Part shown: positions 41,887 through 46,065 of the stretch, one piece after another | How positions within the stretch are numbered: position 1 is the first letter of the stretch | Layout of the letters: every line of letters begins with the position of its first letter | Notes under the pieces: model-generated | Told to the model about the DNA's origin: nothing | The model's input: the letters and a program-made list of their open reading frames with translations, nothing else | The model's database searches: none | Origin: Candidatus Saccharimonadales bacterium | GTDB taxonomy: Bacteria; Patescibacteriota; Saccharimonadia; Saccharimonadales; UBA4665 | Length of the DNA: 64,000 bases | Direction of reading: 5' to 3' | Assembly: GCA_038239685.1 (NCBI GenBank) | Contig: JBBSEN010000004.1 | Coordinates: forward strand, 8,657-72,656 | Made by a program: the position numbers and the translations under genes

Positions 41887-41923
41887 CTGCTCAGCCCCTA
41901 GTAGACGTACTTCGCAACTTTAG
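41887..41923. repeat. Copy 1 of a ~36-nt intergenic motif
   Basis: ctgctcagcccctagtagacgtacttcgcaactttag. It aligns with the copies at 44942 and 46030. Confidence 0.55.
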
Positions 41924-41942: not shown

Positions 41943-43448
41943 TTAGTAACCTGAAAAATGATCGGTTTTGATGTCGTTATTGGCAACACCTAGCTCACGT
42001 AAGTATTGTTTGGCGTTGTCAACCATGTGGTTTGGGCCGGAAACGTAGAATAGCCGCTCATCATAGTCTGGTACTACTTTCGACAATAGCCGTGGACTCA
42101 AGTGCGCATGTATTAATCCCGGTTGGTGCTCGCCCGTCTTGGTCACGATAGGAATTGTTTTAACACCTAGGTTAGCGGCGGCTTTCAAGTCTTCGACATA
42201 AGCGAATTCGTCGGGGTCGCTGACAAGATAAAGCAATACAATATCGCAGGCAGTCCCCTTGTCGGTTATATATTTAATCATGCTGCGAAAAGGCGTTATG
42301 CCAATGCCGCCGGCGATAAAGGCCAGTTTCTTGGTCTCGTTGCCATTCAGGGTGAAATTGCCGGCCAACTGGCTGCCATAAATAACATCACCTGGCTCTA
42401 AGTCATGGAACGTGGACTTATAGGTACTTGATGGCTCATAATATTTGAGCCCGACATGAACTTCTGACTCTGTCGGTGAGGAAGCAATGGTGAAGCTCCG
42501 CCGGTTACCTCGGCTGTCATAGGGGACGCCGGCCAGTGTCCATTCCATGTATTGGCCAGGGAGAAACTGGAAGGCGCCATCCGGCTTAAAAGTGTACGCG
42601 TAAACCCGATCCGATACACGCTGTATTGCTTGTAGCTTCAACCGCAGCCTGGCTTTGGGCGATACTGCATAAGCAAATAGGTTGCCTACCAGCAAGGCGA
42701 CCTCGGGGTAGATAATAACCGGCCCTACTTTCCAACCAGCGACATAAAGCACTGCTACCAAGCTGGCAAATACCAACTGCATATTGCGCCGCGGCGGCAT
42801 AGTGGCCGGCTCGGTCAGCATAATAGTTGATAAGAAAATGAGCGGCGAGGCGATGAGGGCGTGCTTCATATTTGTAAATAGCGGCTGGTGATGATGTATA
42901 AACAAGGCAGCTTGCAAGACGACACTTATAACCGCAAAGGTCGCGAACAGTGAAAATCGCCTGACTTTTCTGATAACGACGAGCCCCAATACGAGGCTAA
43001 AGGGCCAAAAAATTGAACTGCCAATCCACCAGGTTGTCGGCCAAAACCCCCACAGGCTTAAAAAAGCTGCCGCCAATGCCGCTGGATTAAAAAAGTGCTT
43101 GCCCTTGCGAGCCAACAAGAACTTGGAGGCACTGGATATAGCGCCAGCCAGAACGAGAGCCAGGCCAGCGGCCACGGAGTTGGCCGGCTGCAAAATTAAG
43201 TACAGTATCAGGCTGGTAATCAGCCAGGATTCCATATTGGTCGGTACCTGGAATAAGTAGCTAAAACCTCGGTTAGTCACCCAAGCCGAGCACAATATAA
43301 GGCCCAAGGATATGATCATTTGGGTCGGACTGGCGGCAAGATGCCCAAGTTTGGCGAAAATAATACTAAGCGCTGCTAAAATACCCAGCACATACACCAC
43401 CAAACGGTACATGGTCATTTTATTAAGTAAGTCGTCGAGCGGCTTCAT
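41943..43448 (-). CDS. Polytopic membrane domain fused to an FNR-type FAD/NAD(P)-binding oxidoreductase domain
   Basis: The N-terminal ~230 aa hold multiple TM helices with KHFFNPAALAAAF, which recalls NqrB/RnfD. The C-terminal part has RRSFTIASSP (RxY[ST] FAD motif), GGIGITPFRSM (NAD motif) and YVSGP. Confidence 0.7.
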   Translation of the reverse strand: MKPLDDLLNKMTMYRLVVYVLGILAALSIIFAKLGHLAASPTQMIISLGLILCSAWVTNRGFSYLFQVPTNMESWLITSLILYLILQPANSVAAGLALVLAGAISSASKFLLARKGKHFFNPAALAAAFLSLWGFWPTTWWIGSSIFWPFSLVLGLVVIRKVRRFSLFATFAVISVVLQAALFIHHHQPLFTNMKHALIASPLIFLSTIMLTEPATMPPRRNMQLVFASLVAVLYVAGWKVGPVIIYPEVALLVGNLFAYAVSPKARLRLKLQAIQRVSDRVYAYTFKPDGAFQFLPGQYMEWTLAGVPYDSRGNRRSFTIASSPTESEVHVGLKYYEPSSTYKSTFHDLEPGDVIYGSQLAGNFTLNGNETKKLAFIAGGIGITPFRSMIKYITDKGTACDIVLLYLVSDPDEFAYVEDLKAAANLGVKTIPIVTKTGEHQPGLIHAHLSPRLLSKVVPDYDERLFYVSGPNHMVDNAKQYLRELGVANNDIKTDHFSGY

Positions 43449-44329
43449 GATGTTGGGCTGAATACCCTGGCTGGAAAATCCTTGGCATGGTGGAGTGTCA
43501 TGTCTTGATCTAGGATGGCATAGCTGAAGTCAAAGTGCTTTTGCAGCTGCGAGGGTTCCGTAAAAAACAAGGCGGTCGCGATACCGTCGGCTGTCATAGT
43601 GTCGGCGGCCACAACCCAAACGGCAGTAATTTGGCGCGGCGATGCTAGGCTGCTTGGGTCTATGATATGGTGAAATGTTCCCCATTGGCGCTTGCAGCCA
43701 GCCGAGGCGCAGAGACTTTTATTGGTTAGCCGGGCAATGCCGATGGCTTCTGAAGTATCCATCGGATTTTCTAAACCAATTGCCAGGGTCTCGCTATCTT
43801 CGGATCGGTGCAGAATGTCACCGCCGGCATTGATGGTATATGACCGGATCCCAGCCTCATCCAAGATCCCGGCAACGATATCGACTAGGTAACCCTTGCC
43901 GGCCGCGCCGAAGTCCAGAAGCACGTTTTTATTTAAAGTGACGCTATTCTTATCATAAGCTATTGTATCTGTCCAGGACGGCGGAGAGGTGAGCTGCTTA
44001 GTTTGGAAAGAGTAGCCGGCGTCATATCCGGCATCGACCATGGTTTGACCAATCAACGGCGTTAATTTGCCGTCAGTAGCGGCGTATAACTTTTCATAAA
44101 AACCAAGTAGCTTATAGCCGTCCGGCGGCAGTTGATAGCGGCCAGGTTGTTGTGACATGCGTGTAACTAGTGAGTCTTGTCGAAAACGCGAATAGGCCTG
44201 GTCGAAGGCCTCGATACGCTGGCTAATTTGCTGCTGCACTCTGTCCCAAGCGATATCATTGAGCTGGCAGTGGTCTTGAATTTGCCAGTGAGTGCCGATG
44301 GCATCAAATTTGGTGAATCTGGTCGCCAT
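43445..44329 (-). CDS. apbE: FAD:protein FMN transferase (ApbE family)
   Basis: LLDFGAAGKGYLVD, INAGGDI, SLCASAGCKRQWGTFHHIIDPSS and ADGIATALFF motifs. No obvious signal peptide. Confidence 0.8.
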   Translation of the reverse strand: MATRFTKFDAIGTHWQIQDHCQLNDIAWDRVQQQISQRIEAFDQAYSRFRQDSLVTRMSQQPGRYQLPPDGYKLLGFYEKLYAATDGKLTPLIGQTMVDAGYDAGYSFQTKQLTSPPSWTDTIAYDKNSVTLNKNVLLDFGAAGKGYLVDIVAGILDEAGIRSYTINAGGDILHRSEDSETLAIGLENPMDTSEAIGIARLTNKSLCASAGCKRQWGTFHHIIDPSSLASPRQITAVWVVAADTMTADGIATALFFTEPSQLQKHFDFSYAILDQDMTLHHAKDFPARVFSPTS

Positions 44330-44337
44330 GCGCGCCT

Positions 44338-44844
44338 TTACGACTGCGCCTTGGAGGCAATTTGGCTGATCGCTTCGTTAAAGCCTTGAGTAGTATCAGA
44401 CGCGCCGGCAACAGTACCCAATCGCAGGCTACTAATTTTTTTCCCAACGACCGCGCTTTTGTAGGCACTGACAAAATCCTCTTGGTAAAGGGCCGAAGTC
44501 GAATCATATTCACTATTCTGGACGGAGACGACGGTCACCACGCCGCTACCCAGCATGACAGAAACTTGGATACTCTCATCGCCACGAGGAACTGAATAAT
44601 TGCTCGATGCAGTATAACCGCCATCCCTGAAGCCACCGGTTGTCGTCGTAGTTGGCCCGGTGGTCGGCGCTGACGTTTTGGTAAGCGTGTTGGCAGCCGA
44701 ACTGGTTTGGCTCAAAGCCCTGCTGGAAGTGGCGCTTTTCGGCTTCAAATAGTCGGCAACAAGCATAACGCCGGCAATTACTACGATTGCTACCACGGTG
44801 GTAATAAGCTTCAGCTTTGCTTGTTTTTGGTAGGTGGTCGCCAT
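44338..44844 (-). CDS. Membrane-anchored FMN_bind domain protein (NqrC/RnfG-like), predicted flavinylation substrate
   Basis: N-terminal TM, a Thr/Ser-rich linker, FRDGGYTASSNY...IQVSVML..GVVTVVSV, and the candidate flavinylation site TVAGASDTT (compare the SGAT consensus). Confidence 0.75.
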   Translation of the reverse strand: MATTYQKQAKLKLITTVVAIVVIAGVMLVADYLKPKSATSSRALSQTSSAANTLTKTSAPTTGPTTTTTGGFRDGGYTASSNYSVPRGDESIQVSVMLGSGVVTVVSVQNSEYDSTSALYQEDFVSAYKSAVVGKKISSLRLGTVAGASDTTQGFNEAISQIASKAQS

Positions 44845-44941
44845 ATTGTCCTTGTCCTTAAAACCGCTATGCTTAATTGTAAAGAATAAAGCCTGAGTGT
44901 TTACTTAAGGAAACTTATCGTTAGTGCTCAAAGTACTATTG

Positions 44942-44978
44942 CTTAGCTCCCGCTATCGGGTGAACTCCGCAACTTTAA
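44942..44978. repeat. Copy 2 of a ~36-nt intergenic motif
   Basis: cttagctcccgctatcgggtgaactccgcaactttaa. It lies immediately 3' of the stop of the 44984..45478 gene. Confidence 0.55.
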
Positions 44979-44983
44979 CGAGG

Positions 44984-45478
44984 CTACTTTTCCTTCGGAT
45001 CCTTACTGGTTAAAGGGCTCAATAGTGTATCAACAAAGTTCTCCGTTTGCTTGTACAAACTCGGTCGTTTAGCTTTTTCTCGCTGAATCGTGGCATGTAA
45101 CTTATGCATGGCGGGATGAACTTCGAGCTCAGAGAGCAACTTTTTAAACTCATCATCGAGGTGCTCAATCTCGTTGTCCGTAAGCGTTTCAAGCCCGATG
45201 AATGTGTCGCGAGCCTTTTTGTCGGCAACGATTAGCTCATTAAGTTTGAGCTGTATAGCCTTGCTGTCTCGTGCTTGGGTGTTCTGGATCGAAAAGACCA
45301 TCACGAAGATAATCACGTCGGTAATGACGGTGATAGTTATTAGCCAGGTATCCGAATAATGATAATGTGGCCCGGCGAGTAGCCAGATTGCCACAACAAC
45401 CATTGACAGCACGAAAGCGGCAGTCGTGCTGGCCAACCGGGATACCTTGATCGAAAAGTTTCGGATGTTGTTTCTCAT
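44984..45478 (-). CDS. Low-affinity iron permease family (PF04120-like) membrane protein
   Basis: Two TM helices, then FSIQNTQARDSKAIQLKLNELI, which matches my memory of this family. Confidence 0.6.
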   Translation of the reverse strand: MRNNIRNFSIKVSRLASTTAAFVLSMVVVAIWLLAGPHYHYSDTWLITITVITDVIIFVMVFSIQNTQARDSKAIQLKLNELIVADKKARDTFIGLETLTDNEIEHLDDEFKKLLSELEVHPAMHKLHATIQREKAKRPSLYKQTENFVDTLLSPLTSKDPKEK

Positions 45479-46029: not shown

Positions 46030-46065
46030 CTTGGCTCCCCCAGTGGACGAGCTTCGAAACTTTAG
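46030..46065. repeat. Copy 3 of a ~36-nt intergenic motif
   Basis: cttggctcccccagtggacgagcttcgaaactttag. It overlaps the TAA stop of the 46062..46385 gene. Confidence 0.55.

Follow-up and report, generated by a model that had tools for sequence, protein, structure and literature searches.

A three-gene NQR/RNF-like flavin module in a soil Saccharibacteria genome and the wide distribution of its membrane-FNR fusion

Introduction

Flavinylation gene clusters that encode a fusion of an NqrB/RnfD-type membrane domain (PF03116) with an NAD-binding domain (PF00175) have been described as NQR/RNF-like systems; the first count comprised 127 clusters, reported mainly from Actinobacteria and the candidate phyla radiation (Méheust et al., 2021, eLife, PMC8238504). 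A path from NAD(P)H through the membrane to an outward-facing, covalently bound flavin mononucleotide (FMN) has already been proposed for these systems (PMC8238504; bioRxiv 10.1101/2024.03.13.584918). In an AlphaFold-multimer model of the complex from Ktedonobacter racemifer, the NqrB-like subunit no longer has a flavinylation site, and the flavin of the NqrC-like subunit adjoins the vacated pocket (bioRxiv 10.1101/2024.03.13.584918). Here, a module of three genes from a Candidatus Saccharimonadales bacterium is compared with these systems. It lies in a stretch of 64,000 nucleotides (nt) (GenBank assembly GCA_038239685.1, contig JBBSEN010000004.1, positions 8,657 to 72,656), which was analysed as a whole and is called the window. 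The host is a soil Saccharibacteria with a genome of 914 kb in 5 contigs and a completeness rating of 100%. The module encodes an FMN_bind protein (g1), an ApbE-family flavin transferase (g2) and a membrane-FNR fusion protein (g3), and the locus is likely to be a member of the published NQR/RNF-like transmembrane electron-transfer system.

Architecture of the module

The original prediction had described three co-directional, tightly packed genes, and three open reading frames (ORFs) are indeed present on the minus strand:

44338..44844, minus strand: g1, ORF of 168 amino acids (aa), NqrC/RnfG-like subunit with an anchor (residues ~13-31), a linker (~35-72) and a divergent FMN_bind domain (~73-168)
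43445..44329, minus strand: g2, ORF of 294 aa, ApbE-family FAD:protein FMN transferase (FAD, flavin adenine dinucleotide), PF02424 at E 1.1e-40 over residues 12-263
41943..43448, minus strand: g3, ORF of 501 aa, membrane-FNR fusion
42654..43448, minus strand: N-terminal domain of g3, residues 1-265, RnfD/NqrB-like and polytopic, 10 predicted helices
41943..42653, minus strand: C-terminal domain of g3, residues 266-501, FNR-type FAD/NAD(P)H domain, PF00175 at E 1.2e-9 over residues 377-480

The stop codon of g1 is separated from the start of g2 by 9 nt, and g3 overlaps the stop of g2 by 4 nt. The motifs TVAGASDTT, HFFNPAAL, RRSFTIAS and GGIGITPFRSM, on which the first assignments were built, are all present, and the identification of g2 as an ApbE is borne out by its PF02424 match. 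A PF03116-type domain recognisable through relatives, a PF00175 domain, an ApbE and an FMN_bind protein directly upstream of the fusion and a membrane-anchored flavinylation target were found together; set against the catalogue of Méheust et al. (2021), this is the architecture of the NQR/RNF-like system. Its operational definition further calls for an ApbE and/or an FMN_bind gene at a distance of no more than five genes and for at least one target with an export signal.

The membrane-FNR fusion protein

The membrane domain of g3 from the window has no Pfam match in the protein scan, and a fold search with the whole g3 model (AlphaFold2, AF2; predicted local distance difference test score, pLDDT, 82.9) returned matches to the FNR domain and nothing for the membrane half. 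Relatives reveal what this domain is. PF03116 was matched by 18 of 22 diverse relatives of the N-terminal domain (best E 8.6e-12), and a profile of this family aligned with Azotobacter RnfD (8ahx_D) at E 2.8e-5 and with 7zc6_D at E 0.1. A genome-wide PF03116 scan picked out the g3 region alone (E 0.006 and 0.27), with positions 129-177 of the hidden Markov model (HMM) unmatched. In the profile alignment KHIFNPAA stands opposite NPFNPAM, and MLTEPxTxP opposite ATDPVTSP of the 8ahx RnfD; g3 has retained both signatures, KH(I/F)FNPAA and MLTEPxTxP, and N121, P122 and A124 of its HFFNPAAL are invariant in the 22 relatives. The suggested relationship of the N-terminal half of g3 to NqrB/RnfD is thereby confirmed.

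The same alignment passes from residue 142 to 222 in 8ahx RnfD while the query advances from 141 to 152, leaving about 80 RnfD residues (143-221) without a counterpart in g3. From the literature, the skipped segment is taken to be the loop that bears the covalently flavinylated Thr of RnfD/NqrB. A conserved [ST]GA[ST] motif was absent from the membrane domain of the 22 relatives. The conserved T216 (MLTEPATMPP) was considered as an alternative, cytoplasmic target of the ApbE and rejected; it aligns with TDPVTSP of RnfD, which is not a flavinylation motif. Lys/Arg-rich and Lys/Arg-poor loops alternate along g3, consistent with the ten helices of the AF2 model and both termini inside. The FNR domain is accordingly predicted to be cytoplasmic, and the loop 134-147, where the RnfD segment is missing, to face outward. 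Across the 22 relatives the membrane domain has a single near-invariant His, no conserved Cys and no conserved pair of His residues, so a haem or Fe-S relay is unlikely. Non-covalent flavins, as in NqrB, would be the natural candidates for the relay.

The C-terminal half is matched weakly by FAD_binding_6 (PF00970, E 0.032). FNR-family models of NCBIfam match it down to E 1.4e-22, and a Foldseek search returned flavohaemoglobin, BenC and the FAD domain of NqrF with E between 1e-16 and 1e-12. Three features are invariant in 29 g3 homologues: the flavin motif RxFT(I)AS (R316, R317, T320), the nucleotide motif GGIGITP (G380, G381, G383, T385, P386) and the C-terminal Tyr501; an SGP motif is also present. 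By NCBIfam and by fold, the domain comes closest to the NADH oxidoreductase PRK10684, BenC and flavohaemoglobin, with NqrF at 4e-8. The assignment as an FNR-type FAD/NAD(P)H domain therefore stands, whereas its designation as the equivalent of NqrF does not: it is a generic member of the FNR family. The genome also encodes a stand-alone FNR-type paralogue of ~235 aa (G000:C1:195769-196449, minus strand) with 33% identity to the C-terminal domain of g3. Most genomes sampled from the order encode stand-alone FNR proteins of ~230-260 aa, which are far commoner than the full fusion.

The FMN_bind protein and its ApbE

The g1 protein consists of the anchor, a disordered linker rich in Ser, Thr and Pro and a C-terminal domain of about 95 residues. 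The window's g1 has no match to FMN_bind (PF04205) at E <= 10 in the protein scan, and a PF04205 scan of the genome found neither g1 nor any other FMN_bind protein. Its homologues, 80 of which were found, point to the family: some carry the source name 'FMN-binding', and PF04205 was matched by 9 of 29 (best E 1.8e-5). The top PDB folds for the AF2 model (pLDDT 75) are 3O6U and 8P2A, two flavinylated FMN_bind structures, with a probability of 1.0, an E of only ~1e-2 and TM-scores of 0.60-0.73 on the target.

Residues G147, A148, S149, D150, T151, T152, Q153, G154 and F155 are invariant in the 29 homologues. Ser149 opens the last helix of the model (149-167) and is the predicted flavinylation site; in other lineages a Thr within an SGAT motif takes its place. 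A predicted acceptor conserved across homologues thus exists. As to the flavinylation-type site that had been claimed for g1, its GAS core is invariant and its surroundings depart from the canonical D-x-x-[S/T]-G-A-[S/T]: the motif reads G-T-V-A-G-A-S, with Gly at the Asp position and Ala at -3. In FMN_bind flavinylation, Ser acceptors work and the effects of D->A exchanges are minor (review, PMC12052999).

The sole ApbE of the genome is g2. It keeps the catalytic-type motifs GAAGKGY, FHHIIDPS and MTADGIATAL, and alignment to the ApbE structures 1VRM, 6NXI and 5MGY shows AKG, HHIIDP and TADG(L/I)(A/S)T to be preserved. Two branches of the system can be told apart by how acceptor and enzyme are combined. 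FMN_bind proteins with a Ser acceptor ([A/S]G[A/S]S), which characterise the Saccharimonadales-type branch, are paired with an ApbE of ~290 aa in 28 of 28 loci, and those with a Thr acceptor (SGAT) with an ApbE of ~248 aa in 15 of 17. Since the ApbE subtype follows the acceptor residue, the enzyme appears to serve the neighbouring FMN_bind protein, as would be expected of a dedicated enzyme-substrate pair.

A third ApbE type, leaderless and more distant (~308 aa), was seen at L083 and L090 (the genome of L006) beside a shorter g3-like protein, ~326-345 aa long and matching g3 at E about 1e-14. The arrangement may represent another variant of the module.

Export of the FMN_bind domain and the leaderless ApbE

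Hydrophobicity and charge served to judge the export signal of g1. The N-terminal flank of the anchor is richer in Lys/Arg than the C-terminal flank in 53 of 90 proteins of the g1 family, and the reverse is true for 18. The bias is moderate in the Saccharimonadales-type anchors (2.5 Lys/Arg on the N-terminal versus 1.7 on the C-terminal side), and the SGAT-type relatives from other phyla start with classic signal-type N-termini ('MKK + hydrophobic'). Export of a pre-folded, flavinylated g1 by twin-arginine translocation (Tat) was considered and is unlikely, as there is no twin arginine (AKLKL) and the anchor is strongly hydrophobic. A TatC is encoded in the genome (G000:C2:58523-59146, E 7.5e-48).

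The ApbE itself is leaderless. Signal peptide, lipobox and membrane helix are all missing from g2, whose maximal 15-residue hydropathy within the first 60 residues is -0.19. The PF02424 domain starts at residue 12, and an in-frame upstream extension is ruled out by a stop that closes the frame 5' of the ATG. The original prediction had remarked on this as an oddity of g2, and it proved to be a trait of the whole system: an export signal is absent from all cluster ApbEs examined (>60), in both subtypes, each of which starts directly at the catalytic core. Two apparent FMN_bind-ApbE fusions that would place the ApbE outside (444 aa, L065; 432 aa, L075) were rejected as out-of-frame read-through from a frameshifted upstream copy of the FMN_bind gene. 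These spurious ORFs (L065:4680-6014 and L075:4707-6005) lie 5' of a short ApbE in two Chloroflexia bins and reflect a pseudogenised duplicate or an assembly error.

ApbE action on exported substrates is established as periplasmic (PMC12052999), and the system-wide lack of an ApbE export signal conflicts with this if g1 faces outward. The leaderless ApbE is not discussed in the passages on the NQR/RNF-like system in the two published accounts, where the pipeline is described as requiring one exported target per cluster (PMC8238504; bioRxiv 10.1101/2024.03.13.584918). One tentative solution, possible although not the likeliest outcome, is that the ApbE is cytoplasmic throughout the system and that FMN is attached before or during Sec threading of the FMN_bind domain, so that the flavin would be exported already esterified. 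The leaderless cluster ApbEs, the Sec-like N-termini of their substrates and the co-variation between ApbE subtype and acceptor make such a sequence of events conceivable, and it is chemically plausible because ApbE can modify seven-residue tags (PMC12052999). Neither an FAD exporter nor a secreted ApbE would then be needed. If true, pre-export flavinylation would be a new route of cofactor export, suited to minimal genomes.

It is improbable that the module faces the cytoplasm altogether, with g1 oriented N-out/C-in, flavinylated by the leaderless ApbE and part of a membrane-bound NAD(P)H:flavin oxidoreductase that feeds a membrane or cytoplasmic partner. The missing export signal of every cluster ApbE and the moderate charge bias of the Saccharimonadales-type anchors would fit this arrangement, and a cytosolic ApbE with a cytosolic substrate is known, for example from Klebsiella fumarate reductase (PMC12052999). 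The signal-peptide-like N-termini of the SGAT-type relatives and the prevailing charge bias of the anchors point the other way, however, and NqrC and RnfG are periplasmic. Long linkers rich in Ser, Thr and Pro, such as that of g1, are typical of exported proteins. Moreover, the RnfD-type loop that is absent from g3, and whose place is taken by g1 according to the published multimer model, belongs to the outer face. An outward-facing g1, as in the NQR/RNF-like system, is therefore the preferred reading.

Distribution and genomic linkage

The g3 fusion was found in at least 508 species-level genomes, which belong to many Patescibacteria lineages, to Chloroflexota and, with one bin, to Acidobacteriaceae. 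An exhaustive search with the g3 membrane domain yielded 1124 representative clusters at 50% identity, mostly fusions of ~500 aa. Within the order, about 34 of 201 sampled Saccharimonadales genomes encode the full-length fusion, and a much larger number have a stand-alone FNR paralogue of ~235 aa alone. The gene order g1-g2-g3 is kept in most of 80 related loci from Saccharimonadales, other Patescibacteria, Chloroflexota (40% identity to g3) and the Acidobacteriaceae bin.

In several Saccharimonadales the module is duplicated, with a g1-g3 pair that has no ApbE and a full g1-ApbE-g3 cluster elsewhere in the genome, so that a single ApbE apparently serves both copies:

L006, L008, L011, L014, L017-L019 versus L084, L086-L088: duplicated module loci

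Clustering of the neighbours of the 80 loci revealed no conserved acceptor or accessory gene. The families found there (glycosyltransferase, response regulator, histidine kinase, ABC, MFS and sigma factor) are all generic, and each occurs in at most 13 loci.

Proposed electron path and its significance

Domain identities, homologies, conserved motifs, gene linkage and the sequence-based topology together suggest how the module may work. The cytoplasmic FNR domain of g3, holding FAD, would oxidise NAD(P)H, and one or two non-covalent flavins in the RnfD/NqrB-like domain would carry the electrons across the membrane. They would then reach the FMN that g2 is presumed to esterify onto Ser149 of the membrane-anchored, outward-facing g1, which may dock at the position where RnfD/NqrB would hold its own covalent FMN. 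The final transfer would go to an acceptor that the cluster does not encode. Electron flow is expected to be one-way and independent of quinones, and its likely purpose in this organism, which has neither NQR nor RNF, would be to regenerate NAD(P)+ or to reduce an extracellular substrate.

Several observations weigh against this reading. Both g1 and the membrane domain of g3 from the window score below the Pfam thresholds, and the acceptor motif of g1 lacks the leading Asp as well as the S/T at -3. The ApbE is leaderless here and in >60 relatives, although the domain that it presumably modifies is predicted to lie outside. The vicinity of the module holds no conserved acceptor or terminal reductase. 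Finally, a RibF-type FAD synthetase domain (PF06574) has no match in this genome rated 100% complete, yet both the FNR domain and the ApbE, with FAD as its donor, need this cofactor. A stand-alone flavokinase is encoded (G000:C1:145010-145369), and FAD would have to be imported unless an unrecognised adenylyltransferase makes it.

The interpretation put forward in the original prediction is nevertheless supported; it coincides with the published hypothesis and is for that reason not new. What the present analysis adds is the spread of the module, its two co-varying ApbE/acceptor branches, the system-wide leaderless ApbE, the missing RnfD loop, the lack of a partner in cis and the lack of a link to an iron permease (see below). 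With at least 508 species-level genomes and 1124 representative membrane-domain clusters, the range of the module exceeds the 127 clusters of the original count. The consistent lack of an ApbE export signal is concretely at odds with the model of extracytosolic flavinylation. Should the published model hold, a two-subunit flavin wire would allow quinone-less, respiration-poor Patescibacteria to shed reducing equivalents or to reduce an external substrate. Redox modules are few in this epibiont genome of 0.9 Mb, and the present one counts among them.

Transcription signals and the neighbouring iron permease

Three features in the surroundings of the module bear on its transcription and on a possible role in iron uptake:

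44876..44903, minus strand: promoter-like site TAAACA, 16-nt spacer, TACAAT, ~30 nt 5' of the g1 start
41909..41922, strand not assigned: 14-nt motif ACTTCGCAACTTTA (plus-strand letters), ~20 nt beyond the g3 stop, found by a repeat search
44984-45478, minus strand: Fet4-type low-affinity iron permease, PF04120 at E 3.5e-35, single copy in the genome

The promoter-like site has 9 of 12 consensus matches in a consensus scan in which the number of sites was not clearly above that of shuffled sequences, and it is weak evidence of a promoter. A ribosome-binding-like AAGGA lies 5' of the g1 ATG. Near-copies of the 14-nt motif were found at 44964-44977 and 46051-46064, each beyond the stop of an upstream minus-strand unit. 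A scan for intrinsic terminators picked up none of the three copies, which may represent an element associated with terminators or 3' ends and common to three successive transcription units of the minus strand. Beyond g3, the operon probably ends at this motif, which sets the module apart from the iron-permease gene. Given the tight gene spacing, the promoter-like site and the 3' motif, g1, g2 and g3 look like a single operon that is distinct from the permease gene upstream.

The position of this gene brings reductive iron uptake to mind, in which the flavinylated g1 would reduce extracellular Fe(III) and the permease would import the resulting Fe(II). The only copy in the genome lies 139 nt upstream of the module, likewise on the minus strand. 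A VIT1 iron transporter accompanies six NQR/RNF-like clusters, for which a role in iron assimilation has been suggested (Méheust et al., PMC8238504). This explanation has only a small chance of being correct, since the permease has its own 3' motif, followed by the promoter-like site in front of g1, and occurs within ~6 kb of the module in 0 of 80 related loci. PF04120 was found in 14 of 34 module-bearing genomes compared to 91 of 201 overall, and on the same contig as the module solely in the present genome. A general association between module and permease, which neither the loci nor the genome counts reveal, was rejected. The PF04120 family, present in these 91 of 201 genomes of the order, was found in 0 of 14 control genomes.

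As to canonical pumps, PF02508 (RnfA/E, NqrD/E) has no match in the genome, and other NQR or RNF subunits are found neither in nor beside the cluster; the module is therefore not a fragment of a canonical NQR/RNF pump. That it conserves energy as an ion-translocating remnant of RNF/NQR, or mediates reverse flow driven by the membrane potential, is highly improbable. The homology of its membrane domain to RnfD/NqrB, which is implicated in NQR/RNF coupling, speaks for such a role, but the further subunits are missing, the covalent-FMN loop segment of RnfD has no counterpart in g3 and the published analysis also infers a single one-way path (PMC8238504).

Comparison with known electron-transfer systems

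The closest relative is the NQR/RNF-like system itself. Here as there, an NqrB/RnfD-like domain without the flavinylated Thr is fused to a PF00175 domain, an anchored FMN_bind protein is encoded next to it, an ApbE belongs to the cluster, and the hosts include the candidate phyla radiation and Chloroflexota. In contrast to the described clusters, g3 from the window lies below the PF03116 threshold by which the system is operationally defined; pipelines of this kind therefore probably miss such proteins and undercount the system. The window's g1 further differs in its Ser acceptor within a degenerate x-x-x-A-G-A-S instead of SGAT, and its ApbE belongs to the subtype of ~290 aa, whereas SGAT-type proteins stand beside one of ~248 aa.

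With Na+-NQR (NqrA-F; 8a1t) and RNF (RnfA-E, G; 8ahx, 7zc6), the module shares the RnfD/NqrB membrane fold and its signature motifs, an FMN_bind subunit of the NqrC/RnfG type that is flavinylated by ApbE (predicted for g1) and an NAD(P)H entry domain of the FNR type, as in NqrF. The six subunits of these complexes contrast with two here. Without NqrD/E or RnfA/E, there would be no intramembrane Fe-S centre, and the 2Fe-2S domain on the FNR part, the covalent-FMN loop and a quinone or ferredoxin module are likewise absent. Whereas electrons follow a semicircular path coupled to ion pumping in NQR and RNF, a one-way export is presumed for the module.

Enzymes of the NOX/DUOX/FRE type, such as the NOX of Streptococcus pneumoniae (8qt6), have the same general layout, with a cytoplasmic FNR domain C-terminal to a polytopic, electron-exporting domain. 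Their structures are among the fold matches of g3, through the FNR domain. The membrane parts are unrelated: six helices with two haems in NOX/DUOX/FRE, and in g3 an RnfD-like domain with presumed flavins and no conserved His pair. The last carrier of the module is, as predicted here, a separate flavinylated protein.

The flavin-based extracellular electron transfer of Listeria (Ndh2, demethylmenaquinone (DMK), EetA/B, PplA, FmnB) differs in its quinone pool, its secreted lipoprotein ApbE (FmnB) and a dedicated route of FAD export (PMC9973259), whereas no quinone step is implied for the module and its ApbE is leaderless. Common to both are an NADH-fed chain, a monoderm-type envelope and, as its terminus, an extracytosolic FMN_bind domain flavinylated by an ApbE-family enzyme, a place that g1 is predicted to take in the Saccharibacteria module.

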